Shown in pieces: positions 23,796-62,213 of a stretch of 64,000 bases of DNA. How positions within the stretch are numbered: the first letter of the stretch is position 1; every line of letters begins with the position of its first letter. The DNA comes from Candidatus Levyibacteriota bacterium (GTDB lineage Bacteria; Patescibacteriota; Microgenomatia; Levybacterales; UBA12049). The stretch covers positions 342,780 to 406,779 of the forward strand of contig JBDRBE010000004.1 of assembly GCA_043823085.1 (NCBI GenBank), written 5' to 3'. A model generated the notes under the pieces. The model did not search any database, was not told the origin of the DNA, and was given only the letters and a program-made list of their open reading frames with translations. Made by a program: the position numbers and the translations under genes.

Positions 23796-23955
23796 ATCCT
23801 TTTGGATTTCTTGACGTTGGATATTCTTGATATTCTTGACCTTGACGTTTTTGACTTTTTGATATCTTGAAATCAAGAATTCAATTCTTCAATTCGTCAG
23901 CTGACGAATCAAGATCAAAAATATCGCACTTCCAACTTCTAGATATCTAATTTCA
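23796..23955. repeat. palindromic intergenic element (TTCGTCAGCTGACGAA core flanked by TTGAAGTCTTGATATCTTGA words)
   Basis: Family copy between rpsF and ssb. Confidence 0.6.
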
Positions 23956-24231
23956 CTATTTTTTCCTAATCAATAACGACCTTAAAACTCCTTCTTGATT
24001 CAAAATTTTCTTTTCAAAATCCTGCGGGATTGAATCTCCTTCTAGCGATAAGTGATAATAAAATCCGCTTTTTTCTCTTTTTATCGGATAGCTCAAAACT
24101 TTCTCGCCCCATTCTTCTTCCTTTGTAACTTTTATTTTCCCAAGCCAGGATTTTATTGTTTCAAGTAGTTTTTTTCGGGCGTTTTCGGCCATTGAACTGT
24201 TAAAAATCACGGCTAAATTGTATGTTCGCAT
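23956..24231 (-). CDS. rpsF: ribosomal protein S6
   Basis: MRTYNLAVIF..YYHLSLEG. Operon order rpsF-ssb-rpsR is canonical. Confidence 0.85.
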   Translation of the reverse strand: MRTYNLAVIFNSSMAENARKKLLETIKSWLGKIKVTKEEEWGEKVLSYPIKREKSGFYYHLSLEGDSIPQDFEKKILNQEGVLRSLLIRKK

Positions 24232-24267
24232 AGTTTTTTAATACTATCATATTCAAAAACGAAAAAG

Positions 24268-24343
24268 CAAGCCCCGTATAAGCGCTCCTTCGACGCGAGG
24301 ATGTAAACCTCGAGAGAAGGTAAGCTTTGTACGGGGCAAGCAC
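24268..24343 (-). promoter_or_regulatory. candidate structured 5' leader of the rpsF operon (possible S6:S18 autoregulatory leader)
   Basis: GC-rich nested helix GCAAGCCCCGTA..TACGGGGCAAGC enclosing CTCGAGG/CCTCGAG hairpins. Lies in the rpsF 5' UTR, roughly 60 nt upstream of the ATG. Confidence 0.3.
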
Positions 24344-24460
24344 TATTGCAGACTGTATTGCAAACTGTTATTGACAAACATACCTATACCTTTATACACT
24401 GTAAACAAGAAAGAAATTGCCCCCTTAAAAATTAAGGGGATGTTTTTGGTGAATTAACAT

Positions 24461-25705: not shown

Positions 25706-25711
25706 ACAAGT

Positions 25712-26482: not shown

Positions 26483-26598
26483 ATAAAAATCTTCCTTATC
26501 CTCTTGAATCTTTGACTATGGCGGAAGTGATTAGATCCTCTCAAATCTTGCATTTTCCGCCGAATTTTCGTATCATTATAGGTCAATAAATAGCTCAT

Positions 26599-27237: not shown

Positions 27238-27301
27238 TCCCTGCTACCCCTAGGGGGTTATCATATTGCAATTTTGACTAAAATATTGTATACTATAAGT
27301 T

Positions 27302-33840: not shown

Positions 33841-33877
33841 TTGTTACACCTCTTGTTACACCTCGGGGGTGTAACAA
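33841..33877. repeat. REP-like hairpin TTGTTACACC-TCGGGGG-GTGTAACAA, with a partial extra half-copy
   Basis: Inverted orientation relative to the copies flanking the RAYT gene. Intergenic, between the fabZ-like gene and cysS. Confidence 0.6.
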
Positions 33878-36009: not shown

Positions 36010-36030
36010 ACTTTGTTTTATTTAGATTTT

Positions 36031-36190
36031 TGCGAGGAGGCATAAAATTTTCGCCGTTCGCATTTTGAGCTTAACATAAAAAGAACCGATTGAAAAGAGA
36101 CCTAATGAACAAATTAAGTAATTTTTAAAGAATGACTGTTGCGAACTGCGGAACAAGAAAACTTTTGTGCCGACTTCAGCAAAAATCTAG
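36031..36190. mobile_element. MITE-like element, second full copy (GGCATAAAATTTTCGCCGTTCGCATT ... GCGAACTGCGGAACAAGAAAACTTTTGTGCCGAC)
   Basis: Same terminal inverted repeats as 21651-21805. Confidence 0.6.
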
Positions 36191-36530: not shown

Positions 36531-36558
36531 CACTTAAATGATATATATCATTTAAGTG
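36531..36558. promoter_or_regulatory. 28-bp perfect palindrome CACTTAAATGATATATATCATTTAAGTG immediately 3' of the TrpR-like gene
   Basis: Seen directly in the sequence. A sister palindrome is at 37006-37033. Confidence 0.5.
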
Positions 36559-36559: not shown

Positions 36560-37003
36560 TCAGAAGGCTTTTCTGTTTTTCCATTTTCTTTCTTCATGCT
36601 TTCTTCGATAATACGACCATGTACTTCCTTTGGACGGAGGAATTTTTGCCAGCATGTCTTCCACCTTTTGCCAAAATTCGCTTATCTTTTCGTCACGAAG
36701 TATTTTTTCAACCGCCTTTTTATAGCCTTTACCTGAATATTTAAGACTAATGCTTACCGAGGCGATTGTTGGAGGAGTAACCCGCAAGATATTTCCTATT
36801 GAAGGATACCTATAACCCTTTTCCAGTAAAACAGCAATTGAGAGACGTTTTGCCAACATTATTTTCTCTACTGGTGAGAGAAATTCTTCTAGAAAATCGT
36901 CGATATCCTGCGAATCCTTAAGACTTGCTATTACACTTTTAAAAATCTCAAACATTCTCTTTTGGACATCTTTATGAATCGGATATTTTGAAACCTGCGC
37001 CAT
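36560..37003 (-). CDS. TrpR-like (YerC/YecD family) DNA-binding protein
   Basis: TrpR-fold HTH region LSPVEKIMLAKRLSIAVLLEKGYRYPSIGNILRVTPPTIASV. Confidence 0.65.
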   Translation of the reverse strand: MAQVSKYPIHKDVQKRMFEIFKSVIASLKDSQDIDDFLEEFLSPVEKIMLAKRLSIAVLLEKGYRYPSIGNILRVTPPTIASVSISLKYSGKGYKKAVEKILRDEKISEFWQKVEDMLAKIPPSKGSTWSYYRRKHEERKWKNRKAF

Positions 37004-37005: not shown

Positions 37006-37041
37006 CACTTTAATGATATATATCATTAAAGTGGTTGTCAA
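37006..37041 (-). promoter_or_regulatory. 28-bp perfect palindrome CACTTTAATGATATATATCATTAAAGTG overlapping the promoter TTGACA-N17-TATCAT-N9-ATG of the TrpR-like gene (putative operator)
   Basis: The palindrome spans the promoter spacer and -10 and ends 2 nt before the start codon. Confidence 0.5.
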
Positions 37042-40957: not shown

Positions 40958-41521
40958 ATGGCAGCACCACAAGAAGCACCAAAAAAAAATTGTATTTCAG
41001 AAGGAATTTCTCCAGCAAGTCTTTTTTTAGCGGAAGTTACAAGTTCATTTGGAGGCCCGATTAATGCAAGGCAAATTTGTAACCCAGAACTAAAATGCAA
41101 TTCTGCTACCGATATAAGACTTTGTCGAACACACGGTGTCGGTCAATTACCTGAAATAATTGTAATCTCTTCCGATTTAAAAGAAATAAATGAATCAGAA
41201 AACAATTCCTTATCTGTTTTTGTTACGTATGTTAATGAGTTTTGTATTGATCTCTCGGGTTGTCTAGCTAAAAGAACTCCCTTAATTAAACTAGATCTTA
41301 TCGTAAGACGCGATGAAGTTTTTTTTCAATTAGCAAGAATTCGCGATACTTCTTGGATAAGAATTTTACCGGAGGGTAGAATCTGTTTTTCAAGCAAGGG
41401 AACGGTTTTAGGAATAAAAGAAGACTCTGGTAAATTTACAATTTCAGCAATTGATATTGATCCTTTATTGATTGAAGAGGTTTTTGACTACGATGGCAAA
41501 CTAGATCTTTCTGAAAATTAA
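40958..41521 (+). CDS. hypothetical Cys-containing protein, probably co-transcribed with paralog C
   Basis: Starts 3 nt after the stop of C. No recognisable domain. Confidence 0.4.
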   Translation: MAAPQEAPKKNCISEGISPASLFLAEVTSSFGGPINARQICNPELKCNSATDIRLCRTHGVGQLPEIIVISSDLKEINESENNSLSVFVTYVNEFCIDLSGCLAKRTPLIKLDLIVRRDEVFFQLARIRDTSWIRILPEGRICFSSKGTVLGIKEDSGKFTISAIDIDPLLIEEVFDYDGKLDLSEN

Positions 41522-42150
41522 TACTCACTCCTTCCTTCCATGGCGCGTTGGAGAGTTAATTCGTCGGCGTATTCAATATCTGAACCGGTGGGCAGTCCCC
41601 TGCCAATTCGTGTTATTGTTAATTGTTGATTGTTGATTGTTGATTGTTGGCGAAGTTGCTTCGCCAAGTACATCGCCGTCGCCTCCCCTTCCATGGTCGG
41701 ATTCGTCGCCAGTATTATCTCGCGGACTAATGCTGAACTCGAACGCGGAACCGCGCCGACTCGCTCTAGCAGTTGGTGAATATAAATTTCATCCGGGCCG
41801 ATATTGTTGAGCGGATCAATCCTCCCATGGAGGACATGATAAACGCCGTTATACCTGCCGTTTTTTTCCAGCGCCAAAACATCCAAGGGCTCTTCAACCA
41901 CACAAATAGTTGAATCATCTCTTTTCTCATCAGAACAAATATTACAGGGGTCTTGCTCCCCTATCATAAAACATTTCGAACATAAGACCGTATCTTTTTT
42001 CAAATTGATAATAGATGAAGAAAATCTATCCAGTTCACCTTGAGGAACATGCAGTAAATAAAATGTTAGCCTCTGCGCTGTTTTTGGCCCAATTCCCGGC
42101 AGTCTTTCAAAGGACTCAATCAAATTCGCAATTGCTTTTGGGACTCTCAT
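41518..42150 (-). CDS. recR: recombination protein RecR, carrying an in-frame heptamer-repeat insertion
   Basis: HhH segment GIGPKTAQRL. C4 zinc finger CSKCFMIGEQDPCNIC. Toprim domain. (ATTGTTG)x5 at 41615-41649 encodes QQSTINNQQLT. Confidence 0.85.
   Translation of the reverse strand: MRVPKAIANLIESFERLPGIGPKTAQRLTFYLLHVPQGELDRFSSSIINLKKDTVLCSKCFMIGEQDPCNICSDEKRDDSTICVVEEPLDVLALEKNGRYNGVYHVLHGRIDPLNNIGPDEIYIHQLLERVGAVPRSSSALVREIILATNPTMEGEATAMYLAKQLRQQSTINNQQLTITRIGRGLPTGSDIEYADELTLQRAMEGRSEY
41615..41649. repeat. ATTGTTG heptamer tandem repeat (x5) inside the recR coding sequence
   Basis: Seen directly in the sequence. The same repeat is inside proS at 49581-49615. Confidence 0.7.
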
Positions 42151-42295
42151 ATTGGAATTCTTGAAGTCAGATTTCCTTGACGTTTTTGATCTTGATTCGT
42201 CAGCTGACGAATTGAAGTCTTGAAGTCTTGATATCTAGAAATCAAATTATCAAGAAATCAAGTTCAAGAAAATCCCACTTCTATCTTCAATGATT
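42151..42295. repeat. palindromic intergenic element (CAGCTG core, TCAAGAAAATCCCACTTCT terminus)
   Basis: Between recR and prs. Confidence 0.6.
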
Positions 42296-43255
42296 CTATT
42301 TTTTTATTTCTTCGGCGATAATATCAGCGACTGTTAGAATTTGCAGTTTGGGAAATCTTTTTTCTCTTGGACAATAAACCGTATCTGTCACAAAAAATTT
42401 CTTCACTGCCGATTTTTGCAAAATTTTTGGCGCACTCTTTGAAAATACTGAATGCGTCACAAAAACATAAACTTCCTTTATCCCCAATTTTCGGAGAAGT
42501 TTTGTCGCGGTAATTATTGTTCCTCCAGATGAAATCATATCATCAACAATAAACGCCCTTTTAATTTGCTTTAAACTGATATTTTCCAAACCCTCAATTT
42601 TATCTGCTGTCACTTGTCCGGTTTCCAAATTTCTGCTTTTGACAATCGCGCCAAAAAACATATCATTTAACATTTGCGAAAGCAATTTTATCCGTCTTAA
42701 TCCTCCCATATCCGGTGAAATCAAAAGGCTCTGCGAATTATTCCATTTATTTTTTTTAATTGTTTTGGCAAAAAGAGAAAGCGCAGAAAGATGAATAATC
42801 GGCATATGAAAAAGCTCGGGAATTTTAATAGAGTGGAGGTCAAAACAGATAAGTTTATCCATCCCCATCGCTTCTAAAGTTTTGATAATAACTTCCAAAG
42901 ACACCGCCTCGCCTGTTCTAAAAAGATGATCCTGCCTTTGATAACCAAGATACGGAATAACAGCGGTAATTGATTTTGCGCCGCTTCTTCTTAGAGCATC
43001 GACAATAAAAAAAAGCTCCATGTAATTTTGGTCAACAGGCGTACAGCAACTTTGCAAAACAACGCATTTTTGGTCTAAAACTTTGTCAATAATTCGAACG
43101 CGTTTTTCGCCGTCCGGGAAGATATATATTTCCAGAGGTGTTGGACTTGTGCTTAATTTACCTGCGAGTTTTTTTCCAAGTGTCTTACTGGAACTACCGC
43201 TTATAATCTTCACAACAGTTATTGTACTATGTGTCGAAAAAAAATCAATAAGCAA
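42296..43255 (-). CDS. prs: ribose-phosphate pyrophosphokinase
   Basis: PRPP synthetase motifs (DLHS, VDDMISSGGTI). Confidence 0.9.
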   Translation of the reverse strand: MLIDFFSTHSTITVVKIISGSSSKTLGKKLAGKLSTSPTPLEIYIFPDGEKRVRIIDKVLDQKCVVLQSCCTPVDQNYMELFFIVDALRRSGAKSITAVIPYLGYQRQDHLFRTGEAVSLEVIIKTLEAMGMDKLICFDLHSIKIPELFHMPIIHLSALSLFAKTIKKNKWNNSQSLLISPDMGGLRRIKLLSQMLNDMFFGAIVKSRNLETGQVTADKIEGLENISLKQIKRAFIVDDMISSGGTIITATKLLRKLGIKEVYVFVTHSVFSKSAPKILQKSAVKKFFVTDTVYCPREKRFPKLQILTVADIIAEEIKK

Positions 43256-43543
43256 TTAACGCCCAAGTAGTCCTCCGAGTCCTCCGCCCATTTGGGAAAG
43301 TTTACGTGCTGCCACTTCTTGGGACTTTTTAATGGCTTCGTTAACCGCCTCTTTAATATCGTTATCGGACTTTCCATTTGACGATAATTCTTTTATTTTT
43401 TGATCGCCGCTTATTACGACATTAACGCCATTTTTTTCAACCGTAACTTCTTCTCCTTGAAGCTGTTTTTGAATTTCCATGGCCTGATCGCGCATTTTCT
43501 TTAAATCGCCTAATTGTTGAAATGGATTCATCATAAAAATCAC
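43256..43543 (-). CDS. ybaB: nucleoid-associated protein YbaB/EbfC
   Basis: 95 aa. Matches the family (QQLGDLKKMRDQAMEIQKQLQ). The canonical dnaX-ybaB-recR order is partly kept. Confidence 0.8.
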   Translation of the reverse strand: MIFMMNPFQQLGDLKKMRDQAMEIQKQLQGEEVTVEKNGVNVVISGDQKIKELSSNGKSDNDIKEAVNEAIKKSQEVAARKLSQMGGGLGGLLGR

Positions 43544-43704
43544 CCCCTACTGTTTAGATTTCTTGACGTGAGATATTTTTGATATTCTTGATCTTGATTC
43601 GTCAGCTGACGAATTGAAGTCTTGAAATCTTGATATCTTGAGTTCAAGAAATCAAAAATTCAAGTTCAAGAAAATCCCACTTCTCACTTCAAAAATTCTA
43701 ATTA
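43544..43704. repeat. palindromic intergenic element, the fullest copy (TTGACGTGAGATA ... TTCGTCAGCTGACGAA ... GTTCAAGAAAATCCCACTTCTCACTTCAA)
   Basis: Between ybaB and dnaX. Confidence 0.6.
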
Positions 43705-45249
43705 CTATTTCTGTTTTAGTGAAATTGAAACGTCGATTGGGCTTCCTATAATTTGTTTACAAACCTTTTCTATAATATCACGAGTTTTTCTTTCTTCCAA
43801 GCGCTCTTTATGAAACTTATATCCGGCTTCTATGGCAAGATTTTTCCCGTCAAAACTTTTTAAAGTACATCCTCTTAGAACTCCTGCCACCGAATGATTG
43901 TAGGGCTTGACCAAATCAATAAGCTGTTTTAGGACATTTTTTTCGTCAAATATTCCGGGTTGATTAATCGCAGGATTCGATAACACTTCTTCTTTCTCCA
44001 CCTTTTTGTCGCGGAAAGACGCAGAACCGGACGCCAAACTACGCTGACTTTGAACATCTTGGTTTTGATTATTAGTTTCGCGTTTTTCTGCATTTTGTTC
44101 CGCATTCTTCTGCGCCTGTATTCCCCACTCCACAATTGCAATTTCAAGCGGCAATTGCGGCAGGACCGCATATTTTATTTCTCCATACGCCTTTGCCAAA
44201 ATTTCAATCAAAGACTTAATTTCATTAAGTTCTAAATTATAAGTTACAAGTCCTAAGTTATTTTCTACACCGACTTTTGATAATAAATTTAAATGCAGTT
44301 GGGAAATCATTTCTGATATAAAATATTTAACATCTATCCCCTCTTTTGTAATTCTTGATACCAATTCTAAGCTTTTTTTAGTGTCTTTTTTAGAAAGATA
44401 GTCCAACATCTTTGATACTTGATACTTGATACTTGATACTTGATATTTCTCCTCCACCAATTCTTTGGTAATCTTTTTTTTATTGGACATTAAAACAAGT
44501 TCTTCTAAGATTTTTACACCGTCGCGAAAACTGCCGTCGGACAATGAGGCAATATATTTTAGTTCTTCTTTTTCTATTGGAATATTTTCCTCTTTGGCAA
44601 TCCGCGAGAATGAACGCAGAAGTTCTTCTTGGGTCGCTCTCTTAAAAGAAATATGAAAACAACGCGAAAGGATAGTCGCCGGAACTTTTTGCGGTTCCGT
44701 GGTACAAAGAATAAAAACAGCATGACTCGGCGGCTCTTCTAAAGTTTTTAAAAGCGCATTAAAAGCTTCTGTGGTCAACATGTGAACTTCATCAATAATG
44801 TAAACTTTTTTAGAAGCCAGAGCAGGCGAAAGCCGTATTTTCTCACGCAAATCTCTTATCTCATCAATCCCTCTATTTGATGCTCCGTCTATTTCCAAAA
44901 CATCTAAATTTGTGCCATTAGTAATAGATTTACATTGCAAGCATTTATTACAAGGCTCAATACTAGCATCTAGCGTATACCTGCCTGCCGGCAAGGCAGG
45001 GCGTTTAGCGTTTAGTTTTTTTTCTTTTGAACTAGACACTAATTTATTAGACGCTAGACGCTCGCAATTGAGGATTTTTGCGACAATTCTGGCGGTTGAA
45101 GTTTTTCCAAGTCCTTTAGGTCCGGTAAAAAGAAAAGCGTGTTGTTCTGATTTTTGATCGCCGGAAAAAACAGCGGTTAATTTTTCTCTAATTTCTTGAC
45201 TATCAAGATCTTTAATTTTTTGCGGCCGATATTTTCGATAATAAACCAT
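43705..45249 (-). CDS. dnaX: DNA polymerase III subunit gamma/tau, carrying two in-frame repeat insertions
   Basis: AAA+ Walker A GPKGLGKTS and sensor motifs. (CTTGATA)x5 at 44410-44447 encodes SIKYQVSSIKYQVS. An ACGCTA-word block at 45001-45070 lies inside the Zn module, between NCE and EPCNKCLQC. Confidence 0.85.
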   Translation of the reverse strand: MVYYRKYRPQKIKDLDSQEIREKLTAVFSGDQKSEQHAFLFTGPKGLGKTSTARIVAKILNCERLASNKLVSSSKEKKLNAKRPALPAGRYTLDASIEPCNKCLQCKSITNGTNLDVLEIDGASNRGIDEIRDLREKIRLSPALASKKVYIIDEVHMLTTEAFNALLKTLEEPPSHAVFILCTTEPQKVPATILSRCFHISFKRATQEELLRSFSRIAKEENIPIEKEELKYIASLSDGSFRDGVKILEELVLMSNKKKITKELVEEKYQVSSIKYQVSKMLDYLSKKDTKKSLELVSRITKEGIDVKYFISEMISQLHLNLLSKVGVENNLGLVTYNLELNEIKSLIEILAKAYGEIKYAVLPQLPLEIAIVEWGIQAQKNAEQNAEKRETNNQNQDVQSQRSLASGSASFRDKKVEKEEVLSNPAINQPGIFDEKNVLKQLIDLVKPYNHSVAGVLRGCTLKSFDGKNLAIEAGYKFHKERLEERKTRDIIEKVCKQIIGSPIDVSISLKQK

Positions 45250-45325
45250 AAACTAAAAATTTCTAAGTTCTAATTTCTAATTGACCTAAATAATTTAGAA
45301 ATTAGGTTAATTAGGTTAATTTTTA

Positions 45326-45715
45326 TTATTCCTCATGATGTATTCCTAATAAATGTAATAGGCCATGTTGCACCAATTCGTCGATTTTTTCGTCAACAAG
45401 GACCTCTTCGAGTGCCGCTTCTTGGATAACTTTTGGATAAGAAACTACAACGTCGCCCAATCGAAGTGTGTCTGTTGGCAAAACCCCTGCTTCTCCCTCG
45501 TTTAGAGAAAAAGACAACACATTGGTCGCCATATCTTTTCCTTTATATTTTTTATTGAGGCTTCTCATTTTTCGGTTTCCAACAATTGCGACCGAAACCT
45601 CTGCCGGCCCAACAACTCCCTGCTCTTTTAATAAAGTTTTTACAGCAGTTGTAATGCGTTTGCGGTTGACCTGATATCTTGATTCAACGAAAATTAAAAT
45701 CTTAAAATTGTCCAT
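45326..45715 (-). CDS. ybeY: rRNA maturation endoribonuclease YbeY
   Basis: Metal-binding motif HGLLHLLGIHHEE. Confidence 0.75.
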   Translation of the reverse strand: MDNFKILIFVESRYQVNRKRITTAVKTLLKEQGVVGPAEVSVAIVGNRKMRSLNKKYKGKDMATNVLSFSLNEGEAGVLPTDTLRLGDVVVSYPKVIQEAALEEVLVDEKIDELVQHGLLHLLGIHHEE

Positions 45716-45893
45716 AAGCCCTTTTTGCCGCTCTTCTGGCATCTTCTTTTTTCTGCTTTCGGGCTAAAGATGGTTTAAGATAAAATCCTCGTCTTTTTGC
45801 TTCCTGCAAAATTCCTTCTGCCATTACTTTTCTGGAGAATTTACGAATAAGTCCTTCGTCGCTATCTCCAGGCATTTTTTTAACAATTACCAT
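45702..45893 (-). CDS. rpsU: ribosomal protein S21
   Basis: N-terminus MVIVKKMPGDSDEGLIRKFSRKV. Basic C-terminus. Likely start at 45893. Confidence 0.7.
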   Translation of the reverse strand: MVIVKKMPGDSDEGLIRKFSRKVMAEGILQEAKRRGFYLKPSLARKQKKEDARRAAKRAYGQF

Positions 45894-46183
45894 AATAAAA
45901 AACACCCCCTCCGAAAATACTACCAATCTTCAATATCTCAATAAAGGCGAGGAAACAAATTTTCGCAAGTTGCGAAGAATCATCAAAGACTTTCAAGGTT
46001 ATATGAGATACTAATAACGCAACCAATATCCAATAATCTAAAAAGAACCGGCGACAAGAAAATTTTGTTTCCGAGCCGTTTAAATTTCTCTATATATGAC
46101 CTGTGCTAGATGTCTCGTTCTATTCTACTCCAAGAAGTCAGCGGTGTAAATAGCCCGAAGTATTTTCTTTTAATGTGAGACAG

Positions 46184-46390
46184 TCAGTCTTTTAAAGGCG
46201 GCCGCATTCCAAGAGAGATATGCGGTCGTTTCTTGCGATAGTATACCAGATAATTCTCAACCTCTTTGGTTAAAACAGGTAATTCTTTTAATTTATATTT
46301 TGTCCAACCTAAACATTCCTTTCTCAAGCTCCTGTTAAAACTCTCAATAAGTATCTGCCGGAAAGGTCTTGAAAAGCCATAACCGTTCAA
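46184..46390 (-). pseudogene. C-terminal remnant of a DDE (rve) transposase, IS3/IS481-like
   Basis: ESFNRSLRKEC...YYRKKRPHISLG matches the conserved end of the integrase core domain. Only about 65 aa remain. Confidence 0.55.
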
Positions 46391-46504
46391 TAAAACCTTT
46401 CTAATTAAAAGTATATCAGAAAATTTTCGACGAAAAATTCAAAGGACCAAAGACTCAAAGAAACTAAAATCCAAAAACGAAGTGTCAAAAAATTCAAGAA
46501 CTAA

Positions 46505-47125
46505 TTACTTGCGAGGAGAAACGACAAACCCAACTCCAAGATCCCACCGGTCATCAAGGTCAGCATAAAGAGCACCCAACCACAACCCGTCCTCGTAGCG
46601 TACAACATACAAGACATCCGGACCGCCGCTCGAGTCAGTAACGGGTTCCATGACTCCAACCAAAGGTTTTCCTGTTTCAACATGGATATTGCCTTTTACT
46701 GCTTCTATTGCAATTTTTAACATTGCTTCCGCAGAAACCTTGTCTCCAAACTCTTCTGCTTTTCCCCAAACTTGCTTGGTTGTTGGATAATCACTACGTA
46801 TTCCCATGGTGCGGGCATCCATGACTACGGGATTTAGGGGTTCTTGGGGAGCAGTAGACCCTCTTTGAAGAATATATCTTCCCCAAATTCCGAGCCTTAG
46901 CCCTTCTGTGGAATCTGCCAATTTTTCCATATCTCCATTACTCATACCTGCCGTTTCAATTTCGGGGAGACGAATTGCTCCTTCAGGAAAAGGAGAAACT
47001 TTTAAAAGCCTCTCTAAACCTCTTTGTCTTGCAATTTTTGCCAATCCAAAAAGCCCTTTAGAAATATCTTCATTGCCAAAACGGCCATTAAATTCTTTAG
47101 CTAATTTTTCTAAATCTGCTGCCAT
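46505..47125 (-). CDS. hypothetical protein in a GC-rich (about 50%) islet
   Basis: 206-aa ORF. Markedly higher GC than its surroundings. Adjacent to the transposase remnant. Confidence 0.4.
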   Translation of the reverse strand: MAADLEKLAKEFNGRFGNEDISKGLFGLAKIARQRGLERLLKVSPFPEGAIRLPEIETAGMSNGDMEKLADSTEGLRLGIWGRYILQRGSTAPQEPLNPVVMDARTMGIRSDYPTTKQVWGKAEEFGDKVSAEAMLKIAIEAVKGNIHVETGKPLVGVMEPVTDSSGGPDVLYVVRYEDGLWLGALYADLDDRWDLGVGFVVSPRK

Positions 47126-47145
47126 TGAAAGTAGATGTTATCATA

Positions 47146-47511
47146 CTATGAGTTGATTGTCAATACCTCGGCGATTTTGGTAAAGTCTTTGGTGGCAAAT
47201 TTTGGCGGTTTTTTGTAATGAGGAGTTAAATGGACATGAGCGTGAGGCACATCAATTCCAATAACTCCCATCTGTATCCAATCTGCTCCTAATTTTTCCT
47301 TTAATAAAAGCGCAATTTCCTTAACCTTTTGGAAATACTCGGAGTAATTTTCCACCTCCCAAACCCACTCGTAATGTTTTTTTGGAATCACCAGCGTATG
47401 TCCGACGCCAAACGGATTAATGTCTAAAAAAGCAAGAAAATCCTTATCCTCATAGACCTTATAGCTTGGCAATTCACTTTTGACAATTTTACAAAAAACA
47501 CAACCTGTCAT
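47146..47511 (-). CDS. HIT family (histidine triad) hydrolase
   Basis: Segment GCVFCKI and the HxHxH motif PHAHVHLTPH. Confidence 0.75.
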   Translation of the reverse strand: MTGCVFCKIVKSELPSYKVYEDKDFLAFLDINPFGVGHTLVIPKKHYEWVWEVENYSEYFQKVKEIALLLKEKLGADWIQMGVIGIDVPHAHVHLTPHYKKPPKFATKDFTKIAEVLTINS

Positions 47512-47608
47512 TGCTTCATTGCTGCATTGCTCCATTGTTATCTTTAGCAATGGAACAATTGAACAATCCAACAATGTTCTTTTAAAACGACTGTGCCTTT
47601 TAATTCTA

Positions 47609-48676
47609 TTATATTTTTTCTAAAACTTGAATAATCTGTTTTAAAGTTAATCTTGATGCTCTCATTTTTGGGTTTTTGGCACTGCCGTTTAGAAGCATTT
47701 TCTTTGATACGTGCAAAAACCACGATGCTTGCGGATCCATTTTTTTGAATTTTTCATAAACCAAAGTCAGATCTGCTCCTTTTTCTCCGCTGACACTGGG
47801 CCGCGCTTTTATCCTTACATATCCTTTTCTCGGATCGCGTCTTACAACTATTGCATACCCCATTTTTTGCGCCAATTTTATAACCGAGTCATTAACTGTC
47901 TCAACACCCAAACCTTTCCCCCATCTTGTCTTAAACTCAATTCCTTTCTCGGCGATTTCTTTTTCGGCCCAAACTCTGTTTTCAAAATCATGTAAAATTG
48001 CATCAAGGCACTGCGAAATAAAATCAACATAAAAATTATCATCATTTGGCTTTTCAAGTTTCAACCCGTCTAAAATTCCTAAAATTGCAAAATCATGATA
48101 AAAAGCCGTAGGATTTTCCCACAAAGCTTCTCTAAAATGATCAATATCTGTCACAACCTTTACAATTCTACCTATGGCTTCGCTCTTGTCTTTCATTCTC
48201 TCGCTCTCCGAACTTTGAACTTTGCCCTGAACTTGTCGGATGGATGAATTTTGAACTTTCTTGATGTAGTCCCAAACCAAACTGGATGCGCTGATGCTTT
48301 CATCGGAAGTTAAATGATGGTCCAAAGGTCCAAGTCCAGTATCAACATGAATCATTTCGTTGTCATCAATCTTCTCGATAGCATCTAAAGAAGAATTTTT
48401 GCCGCGGGGAGGCACAAAATTTTCGCTGTTCGCATCTTGTCGAGCGCCAATGCGTTGATGAACGCCTTGAGACTCATCGCGAGACAACTGCGGAACAAGA
48501 AAATTTTCGTGCCGACCTAAGCGGCTCAAACCCTCTTTTCCTCTCACTCGCAACCTTTCTCCCGATAAAACAAATCTCACTTCTGCATTTTCCCATCCTG
48601 CTAAAAATCTTTTTGTCAACCAAACCGAGCAAATCGCATCTAAATCAGGAGAAGTATGGGTAACAACAATTTTCAT
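47609..48676 (-). CDS. DHH family phosphoesterase (NrnA-like) carrying an in-frame MITE insertion
   Basis: DHH motif I HTSPDLDAICS and the DHH motif in VDTGLGPLDHH. A 125-nt MITE copy at 48401-48525 is translated between them. A GAACTTTG-repeat insert lies at about 48181-48260. Confidence 0.6.
   Translation of the reverse strand: MKIVVTHTSPDLDAICSVWLTKRFLAGWENAEVRFVLSGERLRVRGKEGLSRLGRHENFLVPQLSRDESQGVHQRIGARQDANSENFVPPRGKNSSLDAIEKIDDNEMIHVDTGLGPLDHHLTSDESISASSLVWDYIKKVQNSSIRQVQGKVQSSESERMKDKSEAIGRIVKVVTDIDHFREALWENPTAFYHDFAILGILDGLKLEKPNDDNFYVDFISQCLDAILHDFENRVWAEKEIAEKGIEFKTRWGKGLGVETVNDSVIKLAQKMGYAIVVRRDPRKGYVRIKARPSVSGEKGADLTLVYEKFKKMDPQASWFLHVSKKMLLNGSAKNPKMRASRLTLKQIIQVLEKI
48401..48525. 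mobile_element. MITE-like element copy inside the DHH phosphoesterase reading frame
   Basis: GGCACAAAATTTTCGCTGTTCGCAT ... CTGCGGAACAAGAAAATTTTCGTGCCGAC. 125 nt, which is about 42 codons with no stop. Confidence 0.6.
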
Positions 48677-48897
48677 ATACTGTAAGTATACAAAAAATTC
48701 AAACTCTTGACAAACTTTTAAAAATGTTACAATATATTATTATACCGAATTTTTGAGGTGGGAAGTGGGATTTTCTTGAACTTGATTTCTTGATAATTTG
48801 ATTTCTAGATATCAAGATTTCAAGACTTCAATTCGTCAGCTGACGAATCAAGATCGAAGACGTCAAGGATATCTAACTTCAAGAATTCCAAATAATT
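48677..48897. repeat. palindromic intergenic element plus overlapping divergent promoters
   Basis: GGTGGGAAGTGGGATTTTCTTGAACTTGA ... TTCGTCAGCTGACGAA. TTGACA on the plus strand at 48706. On the minus strand, TTGTCA-N17-TATACT-N6-ATG serves the DHH gene. Confidence 0.55.
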
Positions 48898-49371
48898 ATG
48901 GACCCGAAAACTGCCCAATTAGATCCTAAACTGAAAGAAGCCTACGAACGCGTTATGGGCACAGCCGTTCCCAAAACGCAAACTCCCCAAGCTCCTCAAA
49001 CTCCCCAACCTCTAACGCCAGTGAAGGAGGCCTCCATTCCTACGGCTAATACCAAAGGAGTTATCATACCCCCTGTCCAAAATCCTTCAGTTGCGCCCGT
49101 TGCTCCAAATACTCCAACACCAGGAATTATTACTAATTCGGGAATAACAACTCCTTCTGTTAAAACTCCGGTTTCTCCATCTATAAATAAAGGAACAAGT
49201 TTTAGCGCAACTGCTGGCAAAGGGGGGTCAGGAGGATTTCCCAGAATTTTAATTTTTCTTTTTCTGCTGATCTTTTTTGTAGGATACGGTATATTTTGGA
49301 TTAAATTCTTTAAACTCTCTGTCCCTTATCTTTCCGACCTTGTCATCCCCGGCCTTGGCAAAGTCTTTTAA
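48898..49371 (+). CDS. hypothetical Pro/Thr-rich protein with a C-terminal TM anchor
   Basis: 157 aa. PQTPQ repeats. C-terminus FPRILIFLFLLIFFVGYGIFWI. Confidence 0.4.
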   Translation: MDPKTAQLDPKLKEAYERVMGTAVPKTQTPQAPQTPQPLTPVKEASIPTANTKGVIIPPVQNPSVAPVAPNTPTPGIITNSGITTPSVKTPVSPSINKGTSFSATAGKGGSGGFPRILIFLFLLIFFVGYGIFWIKFFKLSVPYLSDLVIPGLGKVF

Positions 49372-51079
49372 TTACTTCGTCTATTGTTAACATTTCTGTT
49401 TCGCTTTTAGCTCTTTCTTTGCATTCAATTTTATCACCGGTTTTGCCTGAAATTACTAAACGTATTGGACAACCGATTAAATCGCAGTCGGCGAATTTTT
49501 CCCCTGCCGAAATATCTCTATCGTCATAAAAAACCTCAATCCCCGCATCTTGCAATTTTTCATAAATTTCATCCGCCATTTTGTTGATTGTTGATTGTTG
49601 ATTGTTGATTGTTACGAGGTGTACCAAGTATGGTGCAACCGCTTCCGGCCACTTAATCCCTTTATCATCAGAGTGAACTTCAACAACCGCCGCCATTGTC
49701 CTTGCAATTCCAATTCCATAACAACCCATGTAATATGGTTTTTCTTTTCCGTTTTCGTCTGTAAAAGTGGCGCCTTTCATTTTTGAAGAATAGTGAAATC
49801 CAAGCTGAAAAATATTTCCAACCTCAATCCCCCGTTTTTCTATCAGTTTTTGACCGTTTGGCGCGGCGTATCCTGCTTTTGCAAGCTTGAACTCATAAAA
49901 CTTTTCAGGCTTGGGCAAGTCCCTGCCAAAATTTACATTAATATTGTGAATATTGGTTTTATTCGAACCCATTTCAAAATTCTTTCTTCCTCTCATTGAC
50001 TCATCCATAAAAATTCTGACATCTTTTGGTAAATTCAAAAGCCCGGCATATCCCACTTCTGCTCCTGTTATTTTTCTGACAGTCTCGGCCGACGCAAGCT
50101 TTAAAGAATAAACTTTGGCAACATGCGAGAGCTTAGTTTCATTTATCTCAAAATCTCCTCTGACTGCCGCGGCAATAACTTTTCCATTCTCGTCTTCAAA
50201 GAGAAGTGTTTTTGTGGTTTGTTCAACCGGAATATCAAGAAACTTCGCCAGCTCAAAAACTCCAATAATCCCTTTGCCCTCAACTTCTTCCATCGGCCTC
50301 TCTTCTTCACCGCTTTCTATTTGGTTTAATGAAAGTTTTGCAACGTCTTCATGGACACAATAACTTCCATCCTCTGTTGTCAAATACCTGCTTTCTCCGC
50401 TTTCATGTTCCACCACAAATTCATGACAATATTCCCCCCCGATATAACCGTTATCCGATTCAACAATAATAGTTTTCAACCCCAAACGCTCAAAAATTTT
50501 AGTGTAAGTTTTTTTCATTTTTTCATACTCTTTTTTGAAATCTTCCTCTGTTGTATGAAAAGAATATCCGTCTTTCATCACAAATTCTTTAACTCGCAAA
50601 AGCCCCCCCCGCGGCCGCAGTTCATCCCGAAACTTGGTAGAAAATTGGTAGAGATTAAAAGGCAAATCTTTGTAGCTTATCTGAAATTTACGAACTAAAT
50701 CAACCAGCATTTCCTCTGCTGTCCCACCCAAAACAAATTCCATTTCGTTTCTGTCTTTAACTTTTACAAGTTCAAAACCAACCGAATTTGTGCGGTTTGT
50801 TTCTTTCCATAAAGCAACCGGATGAAGAATTGGTGCTGTGATTTCCTGCGCACCTGCTTTATCCATTTCAACTTTTATAATATCTTGAATTTTCTGGTGG
50901 ACTTTTTGGCCAAGCGGTAAAAAATAATAACGCCCTGCTGTACTTTCGCGGATAAATCCTGCCTTATAAAGAAGTTTATGGGAAGTAATAACCGCATCCT
51001 TTGGCGCTTCCCGAATTGTTCTTCCAAACAGTTTTGAATATCTCATAACAAAAGTATAGCACAAATCCGCGATTGTCAT
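49343..51079 (-). CDS. proS: prolyl-tRNA synthetase (bacterial type), carrying an in-frame heptamer-repeat insertion
   Basis: Class II motifs and an anticodon-binding C-terminus. (TTGTTGA)x4 at 49581-49615 encodes TINNQQSTIN in the linker. Confidence 0.9.
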   Translation of the reverse strand: MTIADLCYTFVMRYSKLFGRTIREAPKDAVITSHKLLYKAGFIRESTAGRYYFLPLGQKVHQKIQDIIKVEMDKAGAQEITAPILHPVALWKETNRTNSVGFELVKVKDRNEMEFVLGGTAEEMLVDLVRKFQISYKDLPFNLYQFSTKFRDELRPRGGLLRVKEFVMKDGYSFHTTEEDFKKEYEKMKKTYTKIFERLGLKTIIVESDNGYIGGEYCHEFVVEHESGESRYLTTEDGSYCVHEDVAKLSLNQIESGEEERPMEEVEGKGIIGVFELAKFLDIPVEQTTKTLLFEDENGKVIAAAVRGDFEINETKLSHVAKVYSLKLASAETVRKITGAEVGYAGLLNLPKDVRIFMDESMRGRKNFEMGSNKTNIHNINVNFGRDLPKPEKFYEFKLAKAGYAAPNGQKLIEKRGIEVGNIFQLGFHYSSKMKGATFTDENGKEKPYYMGCYGIGIARTMAAVVEVHSDDKGIKWPEAVAPYLVHLVTINNQQSTINKMADEIYEKLQDAGIEVFYDDRDISAGEKFADCDLIGCPIRLVISGKTGDKIECKERAKSETEMLTIDEVIKRLCQGRG

Positions 51080-53606: not shown

Positions 53607-53666
53607 AATAGAAATTCTTACATTTATAAATAAGAGAGTCAAGTCCTAAATTATTTAAACAAATAA

Positions 53667-53703
53667 ACAAAATACTACAGTGCTATGTAGTGCTAAAGTT
53701 TAG
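53667..53703. promoter_or_regulatory. 37-bp repeat ACAAAATACTACAGTGCTATGTAGTGCTAAAGTTTAG, 3' copy, overlapping the stop of the TrpR-like gene
   Basis: 34 of 37 identical to the copy at 54250-54286. Contains CTACA..TGTAG and TAGCGCTA-like dyads. Confidence 0.5.
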
Positions 53704-54238
53704 AACGCAAAAGTTTTTCAATACGCCTATGGAGCTCGTTTTTTTCGTCCAGCTTCTTTAACACATTGCTTATTTTGTCTTTCTGTTTTTGACTCGCACT
53801 TTCTATTACTTTTTCCAAAAGAAGCTCCGGCCAAAAATACAAAGCATGTCTTCTTTTAAATTTATCCCAATCTGAAATATCTGCCCAACTTTTTCCCTTC
53901 TCTATTTCTTGTTTAGGAAGTTTTTTTATTATATTCCTAAAACCATCTCCTCTTTCTGAAAGCCAAACAGCTATCTTCGCAATAGTGGCATAACTTACAT
54001 GCAATTGCCGATTCACTTTTTGATAAGTCAATCCTTTTATCAAAAGTTTTGCTATTCTTAATCTTTTAGATAAAATTTGAACTTCTTTCTTTGTCAATAA
54101 ATCTTGAAGAAATAAAGCAGCCTCGCCGATATTTCCTGTATAAACTAATGCATTAAGTAAATCAAAAAATAAGTCTCTCTGTTCATTTTTTGAAAGCTTT
54201 TCAATTCTTCTTGGTTTTTCAAAAAATGTTTTATTCAT
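53693..54238 (-). CDS. TrpR-like (YerC/YecD family) DNA-binding protein, second paralog
   Basis: HTH region TYQKVNRQLHVSYATIAKIAVWL. Family similarity to the 36560 protein. Confidence 0.6.
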   Translation of the reverse strand: MNKTFFEKPRRIEKLSKNEQRDLFFDLLNALVYTGNIGEAALFLQDLLTKKEVQILSKRLRIAKLLIKGLTYQKVNRQLHVSYATIAKIAVWLSERGDGFRNIIKKLPKQEIEKGKSWADISDWDKFKRRHALYFWPELLLEKVIESASQKQKDKISNVLKKLDEKNELHRRIEKLLRSKL

Positions 54239-54249
54239 AAAATGAACTA

Positions 54250-54286
54250 ACAAAATACTACAGTGCTATGTAGCGCTAAAGTATAG
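54250..54286. promoter_or_regulatory. 37-bp repeat, 5' copy, just upstream of the TrpR-like start (putative operator with a TATACT -10)
   Basis: In gene orientation, TATACT is followed directly by the TAGCGCTA palindrome and the CTACA-N6-TGTAG dyad. Confidence 0.5.
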
Positions 54287-54352
54287 ACGTAATTAGCCTA
54301 ACATATTAATTATGGAAGAATCAATAAGAAGAATTCGCAAGATAATTGGAGA

Positions 54353-56115: not shown

Positions 56116-56125
56116 TAAAATTATT

Positions 56126-56960: not shown

Positions 56961-56962
56961 AA

Positions 56963-58192: not shown

Positions 58193-58340
58193 GAGGTGAC
58201 GTCTTCACTAGAGTCGCCGAAGGCGACCGTATCCCGAGTCCCGCCGATGAGGCGGGACGGAGGGACGCTTGCGTTTGAAGACTCGCCGAACTGGAAAGGC
58301 GACCTAAGCGATATTCCCTGAACAAGAAAACTTTTATACC
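58193..58340 (-). promoter_or_regulatory. GC-rich structured 5' leader upstream of rseP, with promoter TGGTATAAAAG
   Basis: In gene orientation: GTCCCGCC-TCATC-GGCGGGAC (8-bp stem) and GTCGCC-TTCG-GCGAC (UUCG tetraloop). Preceded by a solo MITE arm and a TATAAA -10. Confidence 0.3.
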
Positions 58341-58350
58341 AAAGTAAAAA

Positions 58351-58914: not shown

Positions 58915-58920
58915 AAACTA

Positions 58921-59379: not shown

Positions 59380-59380
59380 T

Positions 59381-60187
59381 TTACTTCTCCTTACTGGGTT
59401 TTGTTTTTGGTTTTGTTGTCGCCGCCCGTTTAGTTTTAGTTTCCTTTGACGATACGGGTTTGGAAACCTCAACCTTTGCCGATTTTCTTCCCTCAACCCA
59501 CGCTTCTATTATATATGAAATTATTAATTTCAAACTGCCGACCGCATCATCGTTTGCCGGAACAGCATAATCAATTAAGTATGGATCTGCATTGGTATCG
59601 GTTATGCCAACTGTTGGAATACTCATTCTTTTTGCTTCGCGAACTGCTAAATCTTCAAGATGCGAATCAATGATAAACAAGGCGTCGGGAAGTTTTTTCA
59701 TTTCCAAAACTCCGCCGTAAAAACCTTCAAGTTGTAGTTTTTCTTTTTCCCATAGTCCAACTTCCCTTTTGGTATATTTTGCTCTTTCTTCTTCATTTTT
59801 TAACCGTTCTCCTAAATCTTTTAATTTCCTATAATTTTTGGCCATTTCCGAATAATTGGTTAAAGTTCCGCCCATCCAGCGATTGGCAACCCAAAATAAT
59901 CCATCGGCAAAACCTTCTATTTTTGCTTTTTCAATTGCTTCTTTTAGAATCCCTTGCGCTTGCCTTTTTGTTCCAACCACCAAAAAACTTGATCCTTCTT
60001 TTTTGGCAACTGATTTTACAAATGCGGCGGCATTGTCTAAACCCTCCTTGGTTTTTGCTAAATCTATAATGTGGATATTATCGCGAGCTTCAAAAATATA
60101 ATCGCGGGCCTTTGGGTTTGAACGAGTTACCTGATGCCCGAAATGGCATCCTGCTTCCAATAATTCTTCAAGTGTAATTTCTCTCAT
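59381..60187 (-). CDS. rpsB: ribosomal protein S2 with a Lys-rich C-terminal extension
   Basis: MREITLEELLEAGCHFGHQVTRSNP. GGAGG RBS. Confidence 0.9.
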   Translation of the reverse strand: MREITLEELLEAGCHFGHQVTRSNPKARDYIFEARDNIHIIDLAKTKEGLDNAAAFVKSVAKKEGSSFLVVGTKRQAQGILKEAIEKAKIEGFADGLFWVANRWMGGTLTNYSEMAKNYRKLKDLGERLKNEEERAKYTKREVGLWEKEKLQLEGFYGGVLEMKKLPDALFIIDSHLEDLAVREAKRMSIPTVGITDTNADPYLIDYAVPANDDAVGSLKLIISYIIEAWVEGRKSAKVEVSKPVSSKETKTKRAATTKPKTKPSKEK

Positions 60188-60208
60188 ACCGTTTCCTTTT
60201 ACCTCCAC

Positions 60209-60714
60209 TTACAATTAATCTTATTCAGGAAACATAAAGTAAGTGTGTGAATTAAATTCATGATAGCAGAAAAAGAAAAAAAATACAATCCCAAACTTAT
60301 CTTACGCCGCCTTGCGGCCATTCCCTGTCCGGCAAATATTGGCGCGGAAAAGAAGAGGATAAAAGAAATGCAAGTCTCTTTTATACTGCTCACTATATCT
60401 TTTTAATTCTTCTGGTAATGCATCCACGCCACAATGCCAGATAAATCTCGCACACATTTGAAGATCTGTCGGTAGCTTTACCAACGTTCCTTGTCGATCA
60501 ACCCCAGCTCTTCTTGTTCGCTCAAAAACAACATTACTATCTGTCTCTAGTTGACGGTGTACTCTTGGACCACCTAAATCATGCTCTGATAATGCTTAAA
60601 ACCGCTTTCCTTGTCTGTTTCTTAAAAATCTTCTAAGGGCCTCTGGTCGACGACATACTTCTATCATATAATTTATAATTGAATAATATCACTAAATCCC
60701 ATTTTTGCAAGAGG
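60209..60714. pseudogene. about 500-bp non-coding stretch with broken reading frames, a possible decayed gene
   Basis: Minus-strand frames read MIEVCRRPEALRRFLRNRQGKRF, then a stop, then ALSEHDLGGPRVHRQLETDSNVVFERTRRAGVDRQG.. No intact ORF longer than 64 aa. Composition differs from the neighbouring intergenic DNA. Confidence 0.2.
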
Positions 60715-62073
60715 TTATGCTACGGGGAATTTGGAGCAAAGGCTTTTGACTTCTTTATTGATTAAAATTAATTTTTTATTTTTAATAACATTTGTTCTAA
60801 ATTCTTTCCAAAACTGTCCTCTTTCTTCTTTGTTTTGCGGAATCTGCGAGTTTCCTACCTCTTGACAAATTTCATTTATCCATTTGGCGATTTTTACCAT
60901 TTCTCTCTCCTTCATCCCCCGCGTAGTTATGGCAGGTGTTCCCAAACGAATTCCCGAAGGGTAAAACGGAGGCATCGGGTCATTTGGAACAGCGTTTTTA
61001 TTAACAACTATTCCCGCAATTTCTAAAGCCAAAGCCGCAGCCGCACCATTAACATTTTTATTTTTTAAATCTATTAAAAGCAAATGATTTTCTGTTGTAC
61101 CGCTTATTAAATTAAATCCATATCTTGTAAGTTCATCTGCCAGCGTTTTTGCATTTTTAACAATCTGCGCGCCGTATCTTTTGAAAGATGTTAAACTTGC
61201 TTCATAAAGAGCAACGGCAATTGCGGCAGTTTGATTGTCATGCGGGCCTCCCTGCAATCCTGGAAAAACCGCTTTATTAATTTTTTCTCCAAGCTCGGGA
61301 TCTTTTTTTAGTCCTTTATCTGTAACCATTATCATCGCTCCTCTTGGACCTCTCAAAGTTTTATGTGTTGTCGTCATAACTATATGGGCATATGGGATAG
61401 GACTTGGATGAACGCCGGCAACAATAAGACCGGTAATATGGGAAATATCGGCAAGCAAATATGCTCCGACTTTATCGGCAATTTGTCCGAATCTTTTAAA
61501 ATTGATGATTCTAGGATAAGCTGTATAACCGCAGACAATAATTTTTGGCTTTTCTTTAACTGCCAATTTTTCAAGTTCATCATAATCCAACAAACCATCT
61601 TTACCAAGCTGATACTGAACTGTCTTAAAATATTTTCCCGAAAAAGAGACCGGCGCACCGTGAGTTAAATGCCCACCGAATGCCAGAGAAAGCCCCATAA
61701 TTTTATCCTTTAAAGGCTCTAAAAGCGCAAAGTAAATCGCTGTGTTGGCCGGAGAACCGGAATATGGCTGAACGTTTACATATGGAACGCCGAAAAGTTT
61801 TTTAGCCCTTTCTTGAGCCAAAATTTCTACTTCGTCGGCAAACTTTTGTCCTTGATAATAACGTTTTTTTGGATACCCTTCGGAATATTTATAGTTTAAA
61901 ACGCTACCCAATGCCTGAAGCATTGCTTTGCTTAAATGATTGTTCGATGGAATCATTTCTAATGTATTTTGAACTCGTTTTTCCTCGTCTTTGATAAGCT
62001 TGTAAATTTTGGGGTCGGTTTTTTGCAATGCTTTCACAAAATAGATAATACTAATAATTTTAAAAATAATCAA
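60715..62073 (-). CDS. glyA: serine hydroxymethyltransferase
   Basis: PLP motif VMTTTHKTLRGPRG and the overall SHMT sequence. Confidence 0.9.
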   Translation of the reverse strand: MIIFKIISIIYFVKALQKTDPKIYKLIKDEEKRVQNTLEMIPSNNHLSKAMLQALGSVLNYKYSEGYPKKRYYQGQKFADEVEILAQERAKKLFGVPYVNVQPYSGSPANTAIYFALLEPLKDKIMGLSLAFGGHLTHGAPVSFSGKYFKTVQYQLGKDGLLDYDELEKLAVKEKPKIIVCGYTAYPRIINFKRFGQIADKVGAYLLADISHITGLIVAGVHPSPIPYAHIVMTTTHKTLRGPRGAMIMVTDKGLKKDPELGEKINKAVFPGLQGGPHDNQTAAIAVALYEASLTSFKRYGAQIVKNAKTLADELTRYGFNLISGTTENHLLLIDLKNKNVNGAAAALALEIAGIVVNKNAVPNDPMPPFYPSGIRLGTPAITTRGMKEREMVKIAKWINEICQEVGNSQIPQNKEERGQFWKEFRTNVIKNKKLILINKEVKSLCSKFPVA

Positions 62074-62213
62074 GGGCTAGTTTTTAGAATCTTTGATGTG
62101 AGAAGTGGGATTTTCTTGAACTTGACCGTTTTGATATCTAGATATCTAGAATTCAAGAAATCGAAGATTCAAGATCAAAAATGTCAAAAATATCTCACGT
62201 CAAAAATTCTAGT
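62074..62213. repeat. palindromic intergenic element, a copy lacking the CAGCTG core
   Basis: Termini TAGAATCTTTGATGTGAGAAGTGGGATTTTCTTGAACTTGA and ATATCTCACGTCAAAAATTCTAG. Aligns with the reverse complement of the 43544 copy. Confidence 0.55.

Follow-up and report, generated by a model that had tools for sequence, protein, structure and literature searches.

A probable miniature inverted-repeat transposable element family in core-gene spacers of a Candidatus Levybacteria subgroup

The stretch of DNA analysed here, 64,000 nt of a Candidatus Levyibacteriota metagenome-assembled genome (MAG) with a G+C content of 37% (hereafter, the window), carries six related palindromic elements that adjoin dnaB, rpsF and ssb, prs and recR, dnaX and ybaB, a gene for a DHH protein, and folA and glyA (Table 1). 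Both the elements and these neighbours had been named in a first-pass annotation made from the sequence alone, and a search with nhmmer, using a profile made from the six proposed loci, recovered exactly those six at or near the coordinates proposed (E-values of 1e-23 to 1e-39) and no seventh copy in the window at E <= 10. The interval 48677-48897 had been drawn too wide: the element there occupies 48744-48892, and the remainder is a promoter-like stretch.

The six sequences are true copies of one non-coding inverted-repeat family. Their alignment, which the annotation had proposed as a check, is collinear over the full length of the copies (115-150 nt) and rules out the sharing of words by chance. 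The 20-mer GAAGTGGGATTTTCTTGAAC occurs in the window four times exactly, twice on each strand, along with one copy containing two mismatches, where none is expected; the 16-mer TTCGTCAGCTGACGAA also occurs four times exactly (23893, 42196, 43598 and 48832), with a chance expectation of 0.01. The 37% G+C of this genome and its many short tandem repeats might suggest that the copies are unrelated AT-rich, low-complexity DNA with fortuitous similarities. This explanation can hardly be credited, being refuted by collinearity over 115-150 nt, by profile E-values down to 1e-39, by exact 16- and 20-mers found four times each where 0.00-0.01 are expected, and by the recurrence of the family in other genomes.

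That recurrence emerged from a search beyond this genome, which the annotation had likewise proposed for other genomes of the Candidate Phyla Radiation (CPR, or Patescibacteria), and in which foreign copies were found by a pattern scan of the 19-20-nt terminus and then checked with the profile. The terminus pattern gave 24 matches in the genome collection and 11 in metagenomes, mostly due to chance, and the real copies were confined to L003, L015, L019, L020, L026, L031, L033 and L035. The same family is present in related Levybacteria, and a total of 23 copies was counted across some six related genomes or contigs: CAZIDK01 of GTDB, with five copies (four lying within 7 kb of sequence), JAKALN01 of GTDB, with two, and four contigs from metagenomes, of which two measure 741 and 863 kb. 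The genome of the window has 7 copies in about 73 kb, the seventh lying beyond the right end of the window, where the sequence was followed in Logan contigs of 5-9 kb from run SRR27458547. RecR of the window has 100% identity with a protein encoded on a 431-kb contig of a Candidatus Levyibacteriota MAG. In four other Levybacteria, whose RecR proteins show 75-78% identity, about 70 kb of sequence that takes in the orthologous dnaX/ybaB and prs/recR gaps is free of copies, and two terminus patterns searched against the IMG/VR viral contigs produced two chance matches only.

Occupancy of the same junction differs from genome to genome. In CAZIDK01 (L015), copies of 130 and 152 nt lie between frr and tsf and between tsf and rpsB, where the window has gaps of 6 nt and 1 nt; L031 has copies at the junctions of dcd with dNK and with the next gene, where the window genome shows unrelated spacers of 89 and 91 nt; upstream of glyA, the window has a copy and L035 has none; and the window copies at dnaX/ybaB and prs/recR have no counterpart in the four Levybacteria without the family. 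Among all junctions compared, five contain a copy in just one of two element-bearing genomes, and none contains one in both. At the dnaB junction, subtraction of the element and one TA would leave a plausible ancestral arrangement of TAA, 6 nt and GGGGGTG. With gapped columns excluded, which makes the values somewhat flattering, copies are 80.5% identical between genomes and 81% identical within genomes, and only those at 42151, 48744 and 43553 cluster closely, with 83-91% identity; the flanking genes are about 70-73% identical in DNA between genomes. Equal similarity within and between genomes fits repeated copying from conserved source elements.

Across the family, the copies measure 115-178 nt and terminate in arms of about 45 nt (TTTAGAATTTTTGAAGTGAGA...) that are imperfect inverted repeats, as the annotation had described them. 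In the common orientation, the 5' terminus reads TTTAGAATTTTTGA(A/C)GTGAGA..., in fuller form TTTAGAATTTTTGA(A/C)GTGAGATAT, and the 3' terminus reads ...TCTCACTTCAAAAATTCTAA, also given as ...TCAAGTTCAAGAAAATCCCACTTCTCACTTCAAAAATTCTAA. Over 21 copies, the outer 32 pairs are paired in 85.6% of cases, and slid partner columns reach at most 61%. On either strand, a full-length copy folds over its whole length into one hairpin, with energies of -23 to -54 kcal/mol for the canonical strand and -17 to -66 kcal/mol for the complement, and with z-scores mostly between -2 and -9 relative to dinucleotide shuffles, a few being weaker; the best hairpin is that of the copy at 43553 (-53.5 kcal/mol, z -6.9). 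The elements have no protein-coding capacity: a stop codon interrupts 116 of the 120 frames of the copies, its median distance from the end being 20 nt, and no stretch stays open for more than 42 codons.

The palindrome TTCGTCAGCTGACGAA, which had been taken to be central and common to the six copies, is an optional, off-centre side hairpin and not the core of the element. Four of the six window copies contain it, and it is missing at 5893 and 62084 as well as from most copies outside the window; in three copies it occupies approximately positions 46-63 of 149, and at 23801 it lies in the opposite arm. The hairpin at 42195..42212, ATTCGTCAGCTGACGAAT, recurs as an identical 18-mer at 23892-23909, 43597-43614 and 48831-48848 and folds separately as TTCGTC-AGCT-GACGAA, with a 7-bp stem and the 4-nt loop AGCT. 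Copies in L015 and L031 have it as TCCGTC-loop-GACGGA, a compensated change that keeps the stem, and in L015, CGGTTG replaces CAGCTG, the loop being GGTT, so that CAGCTG itself is not conserved.

Taking these features together, we consider the family to be probably, though not certainly, a new non-autonomous mobile element of the MITE type (for miniature inverted-repeat transposable element) that belongs to a subgroup of Candidatus Levybacteria. A MITE was among the options raised by the annotation, and it is favoured by a small size, within the limit of about 500 bp for MITEs, and the lack of coding capacity, by the inverted termini and the end-to-end hairpins that they form, and by the dispersal of copies in both orientations with filled and empty sites, that is, insertion polymorphism among genomes compared at about 70% DNA identity.

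Several observations weigh against this assignment. At about 70% DNA identity, the spacers are too diverged to align, and at any single site the difference could stem from a deletion rather than an insertion. An autonomous partner with the ends of the element was found neither in the window nor in about 8 kb around each foreign copy, and Pfam and NCBIfam searches detected no DDE transposase domain in about 50 open reading frames (ORFs) of the window and 10 ORFs beside foreign copies; to our knowledge, many accepted bacterial MITEs, such as ERIC (enterobacterial repetitive intergenic consensus) elements, also have no known autonomous partner. At about two-thirds of the ends, TA stands beside GAAT...ATTC, with no longer direct repeat visible, and in one subfamily four independent insertions have TG in place of TA, a sign that the dinucleotide may be part of the element. 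Furthermore, the periodicity of about 8 nt in the arms is not a usual feature of MITEs.

Some of these facts bear on the type of enzyme involved. A single-strand HUH/Y1 enzyme, similar to those of IS200/IS605 or to a REP-associated tyrosine transposase (RAYT; REP, repetitive extragenic palindrome), might move the element by recognizing its folded hairpin, as with REPINs and palindrome-associated transposable elements (PATEs), in place of a DDE enzyme acting on inverted ends. The window does encode a RAYT-like Y1 transposase (11213-11878), each copy makes a long hairpin with either of its strands, and, as with HUH elements, no clear target-site duplication is seen. We nevertheless regard this mode of movement as unlikely, given that the hairpin on either side of the Y1 gene is another one, GTTACACYCCCGAGGTGTAAC, and not the TTGA element, that the NCBIfam score of this gene is 48, below the curated cut-off of 80, that the arms of the element are direct 8-mer arrays and not REP-like GC-rich hairpins, and that the 4:2 orientation of copies within one replichore indicates no strand bias.

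The periodic arms raise a separate set of possibilities. The 5' half of the element is a run of approximately 8-nt units with TTGA, the 3' half is a mirror run with TCAA, and the centre is variable. Autocorrelation peaks at 8, 16, 24, 31 and 39 nt, with none at 18 or 36 nt, and Tandem Repeats Finder (TRF) reports period-8 arrays in every copy; three consecutive TTGA-N4 units are confined to the elements in the window and never occur in element-free relatives. Slippage would be the simplest source of this periodicity because the genome is full of period-7/8 microsatellites, even within genes. Near-perfect examples ((TTGTTGA)n, (TTGATAC)n and similar) lie at 8426-8461, 41611-41649, 44412-44445, 49581-49613 and 63838-63872, among others, and several fall within the coding regions of recR, dnaX and proS; in recR, three units (21 nt) encode a repeated 7-residue linker, for example, STINNQQ.

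MetJ, omega and ParG-type proteins bind arrays of 7-8-bp iterons cooperatively, and by analogy the elements could be binding-site arrays for a DNA-binding protein that recognizes either the CAGCTG palindrome, as the annotation had offered, or the TTGA/TCAA units spaced by 8 bp. The clear periodicity in both autocorrelation and TRF and the restriction of triple TTGA-N4 runs in the window to the elements would suit such arrays. The CAGCTG version founders on the absence of the hairpin from two of the six window copies and most copies elsewhere, and on its replacement by CGGTTG with the stem kept in one relative; for either version, slippage can explain the periodicity in a genome with period-7/8 microsatellites throughout, no candidate binding protein is linked to the copies and occupancy is not conserved between genomes, so that we find a binding array very improbable. 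It is doubtful, too, that the arms are the working part of a new class of CPR hairpin elements and not a by-product of slippage. In an iteron version of this proposal, the array would polymerize a dedicated protein that would be the element's own mobilizing enzyme, possibly of the HUH rather than the DDE type; in an inter-cistronic version, tiny genomes would have recruited the element to stop translation in all frames and to mark the transcript for processing.

Every one of the 23 copies lies between genes, some of which are arranged in tandem, some divergently and some convergently, and the orientation relative to transcription is 9:8. The median distance is about 4 nt from the element to the upstream stop codon and about 20 nt to the next start. 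In the copies at 5893 and 42151, the stop codon TAG is inside the terminal TTAGAA, and just outside the other end at 5893 and 43553 is the Shine-Dalgarno sequence GGGGGTG, followed in the latter case, beyond the left end, by the ybaB start. Copies in the window are located within the core-gene operons dnaX-ybaB-prs-recR and rpsF-ssb. Intrinsic (Rho-independent) termination, suggested earlier as a role, does not hold as a general one: the arms are AT-rich, no T-run or U-tract follows the hairpin, and copies are found between co-transcribed genes inside operons and upstream of start codons. A consensus scan of 41000-50000 detected no terminator in any copy and no promoter or terminator that would account for the element, with 31 promoters against 21.8±4.3 in shuffled sequence and 9 terminators against 7.2±2.8, all within about 2 SD. 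The terminal TAGAAT resembles a -10 box, and a promoter role for it found no support.

A promoter-like site precedes the copy at 48744 (Table 1); its spacer is 15 nt, and the consensus scan did not list it. If this promoter is active, the entire copy would be included in the 5' untranslated region (UTR) of the ORF at 48898-49371. Another promoter-like site, TTGATT-17-TATTAT, lies upstream of glyA (62040-62075) and ends about 8 nt before the likely GTG start, a spacing that suggests a leaderless or near-leaderless mRNA. Between rpsB and glyA, a stretch of about 500 nt (60209-60714) has no ORF of at least 80 aa and no match to an RNA family and could be a decayed gene or an unannotated RNA.

The locations inside core-gene operons and in a likely 5' UTR, the strong hairpins with stops in nearly all frames, and the greater conservation of the element sequence than of the neighbouring genes across genomes are what one would expect if the copies were kept mainly as cis-acting hairpins of the host, serving as operon punctuation, an RNase III or RNase E site, an mRNA stabilizer or a translation insulator, with mobility only as their origin. 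Such effects are on record for other families: Correia elements are reported to contain promoters and an IHF site and to be cut by RNase III at their inverted repeats, and ERIC elements can alter mRNA stability (PMC10969869). For the Levybacteria family, a host function of this kind appears improbable as the main reason for its presence. Among the orthologous junctions, none carries a copy in two genomes; the family is absent from four related Levybacteria, and orientation is random at 9:8. Covariation in the arms is weak, with 7 pairs showing double changes compared to 5.8 in shuffles, and a single pair covaries clearly (U-A in 11 copies, G-C in 5), the others being mostly invariant or decaying. 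The near-identical copies at 42151 and 48744 differ at positions that disrupt arm pairing without compensation, as expected for decay after insertion. Because the covariation score barely exceeds that of shuffles and the youngest copies contain uncompensated mismatches, there is no case for a selected RNA structure.

If the family is indeed a MITE, a putative transposase acting in trans would recognize both ends and move the element into very short gene spacers, where it would usually land within a few bases of the upstream stop codon and spare the ribosome-binding site and start of the next gene; we infer the target preference from these positions. The copies have no terminator tail, stop translation in almost every frame and are equivalent in either orientation, properties that could explain why they are tolerated. 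After insertion, the copies would decay. A copy co-transcribed within an operon would form a hairpin of -40 to -53 kcal/mol, which, by analogy with Correia and ERIC elements, might become an RNase cleavage site or alter mRNA stability as a side effect.

Table 1. Copies of the element in the window and its continuation, with neighbouring features
Feature	Coordinates	Strand	Details
Element copy, short variant without the CAGCTG hairpin	5893..6007	+	115 nt; nhmmer E 1e-23, alignment, ORFs
Neighbours of the 5893 copy			dnaB stop 6004-6006 within the element's terminal TTCTAA; 72-aa ORF start 5872
Element copy, interior inverted relative to other copies	23801..23950	+	150 nt; CAGCTG hairpin in right arm, 23892-23909
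Neighbours of the 23801 copy			rpsF stop 23956; ssb start 23795
Full-length element copy	42151..42299	+	149 nt; prs stop 42296-42298 inside terminus, recR start 42150
Full-length element copy	43553..43701	+	149 nt; between dnaX stop (43705) and ybaB
Full-length element copy, opposite orientation	48744..48892	-	92% identity to 42152-42296
Setting of the 48744 copy			Divergent gap, 5 nt ahead of the ATG of ORF 48898-49371
Promoter-like TTGACA then TGtTACAAT	48707..48741	+	Upstream of the 48744 copy; read from the sequence
Element copy without the CAGCTG hairpin, opposite orientation	62084..62213	-	130 nt; folA stop 62214-62216 / glyA start region
Seventh copy, same genome	L044 2841-2943		About 100 nt, short; between two minus-strand genes, about 7 kb past the right end of the window

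Two of the copies listed in Table 1 call for comment. In the copy at 23801, repeat comparison shows 23848-23925 to be inverted relative to 43581-43658 and 42183-42256, and the left end is direct. A Logan short-read contig from the same run (SRR27458547) breaks within the copy at 42151. The contig with the seventh copy begins with the 3' end of 16S rRNA (GGATCACCTCCTTTCTAA, L044 1-60), which places an rRNA operon about 7.7 kb to the right of the window.

The window contains other repeats. The RAYT-like Y1 (IS200-like) ORF at 11213-11878 matches Pfam Y1_Tnp with 31 bits and has the REP-associated tyrosine transposase as its best NCBIfam match, with 48 bits. It is bracketed by the REP-like hairpin GTTACACYCCCGAGGTGTAAC at 11182-11202 and 11881-11901, a third copy of which is at 33855-33875, and a promoter-like module, TTGACAAGGAAA...TGTGGTAT(A/G)A, occurs in duplicate on the flanks of the ORF (11150-11932). 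A second, unrelated palindromic family of 130-160 nt is represented at 21645-21805, 36026-36186 and 48398-48528, with a fragment at 58320-58347; about 30 pairs form its closing stem (GGCACAAAAGTTTTCTTGTTCCGCAG... / ...CTGCGAAAATTTTGTGCC), its interior is variable, no Rfam family matches it, and two of its copies lie between minus-strand genes and one within the called ORF 47609-48676.

A 37-nt repeat at 4081-4117 and 62496-62532 (97% identical) holds a near-perfect 31-nt GC-rich palindrome, TAGCTTCGCAAGGCGACGCCTTGCGAAGCTA. One of its sites is intergenic, beside the tRNA at 4181-4265, and the other is in frame in folA, where the residues SSFARRRLAKL that it encodes fall in a variable loop. The repeat is a breakpoint in both Logan contigs from the same sample, and it may be either a small mobile hairpin able to sit within coding sequence or an artefact of assembly. 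Two ORFs of the Trp-repressor family are likewise bracketed by repeats, that at 36560-37003 by the palindrome CACTTAAATGATATATATCATTTAAGTG (36531-36558 and 37006-37033) and that at 53693-54253 by a 55-nt direct repeat (53650-53704 and 54233-54287), and these pairs may be operators.

CPR bacteria have very small genomes, in which mobile DNA is generally considered scarce. A density of about one copy per 10 kb and recent insertion in core operons (dnaX-ybaB-prs-recR and rpsF-ssb, and frr-tsf-rpsB in a relative) would point to some mobilizing activity in this group. We found no description of MITEs in CPR bacteria in the literature. A large census of prokaryotic MITEs used RefSeq bacterial genomes, left out potentially contaminated MAGs and single-amplified genomes and never mentions Patescibacteria or CPR, and thus probably missed them (PMC11602168). 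In practical terms, short-read assemblies are interrupted at the copies, which also give rise to spurious ORF extensions, and knowledge of the family therefore aids the assembly and annotation of Levybacteria MAGs; the copies are also ready markers for strain typing and offer a natural test of a 40-50 kcal/mol hairpin inside an operon of a not-yet-culturable organism.

Comparison with known systems places the family near some of them and apart from others. The Rfam search that the annotation had proposed matched no family to the elements: at gathering thresholds, the only hit in the window is one tRNA, and relaxed thresholds yield sub-threshold generic miRNA-precursor hairpins over the copies and a CD-box snoRNA in the prs coding sequence outside them. 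CRISPR-like and replication-origin readings are ruled out by the period, the neighbours, the orientation and a monotonic GC skew. Integron attC sites, including VCR (Vibrio cholerae repeat) sites, follow cassette genes in one orientation, with an R''/R' core (GTTRRRY) and an integrase nearby. An attC identity was rejected on the orientation of the copies (4:2 in the window, 9:8 overall), on core-gene neighbours whose order is conserved in element-free relatives, and on the lack of a conserved G ahead of the TTAGAAT terminus.

TIGR (tandem interspaced guide RNA) arrays, which are common in CPR bacteria, lie beside a gene for Tas, a Nop-domain protein, are made up of 36-nt units in which two variable spacers accompany the edge and loop repeats, and share with the present elements the character of short-period non-coding arrays in CPR genomes that escape standard repeat annotation (PMC12045711). 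The elements differ from them in a period of about 8 nt, in variable parts that are common to dispersed copies and in their housekeeping neighbours; with no 18- or 36-nt period and with dnaB, ssb, recR, ybaB and glyA alongside, a TIGR-Tas array was rejected. The label REP-like, used in the first-pass annotation, fits loosely, in the sense of an intergenic palindrome that forms a hairpin in a window with a RAYT-like gene; it fails in that REPs are GC-rich hairpins of 20-40 nt that flank their own RAYT, whereas the arms here are AT-rich direct 8-mer arrays, and a REP/REPIN system was set aside since the hairpins around the RAYT-like ORF are unrelated to the TTGA elements.

Closer parallels are the ERIC elements, or intergenic repeat units (IRU), which have in common with this family an imperfect palindrome (about 127 bp in ERIC), placement in transcribed intergenic regions in both orientations, size variants produced by internal indels, occupancy that varies between related species and no known transposase; ERIC differs in being confined to Gammaproteobacteria, in having no 8-nt periodic arms and in showing no sequence similarity. 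The Correia elements, which are MITEs of Neisseria, are likewise without sequence similarity, belong to an unrelated host phylum, have no known arms of 8-nt sub-repeats and make a defined TA duplication, in contrast to the TA at about two-thirds of the ends of the Levybacteria element. With this element they share a length of 100-200 bp, the lack of coding capacity, long terminal inverted repeats, many intergenic copies near genes in either orientation, co-transcription as a hairpin, here predicted, and variants with an internal inversion.

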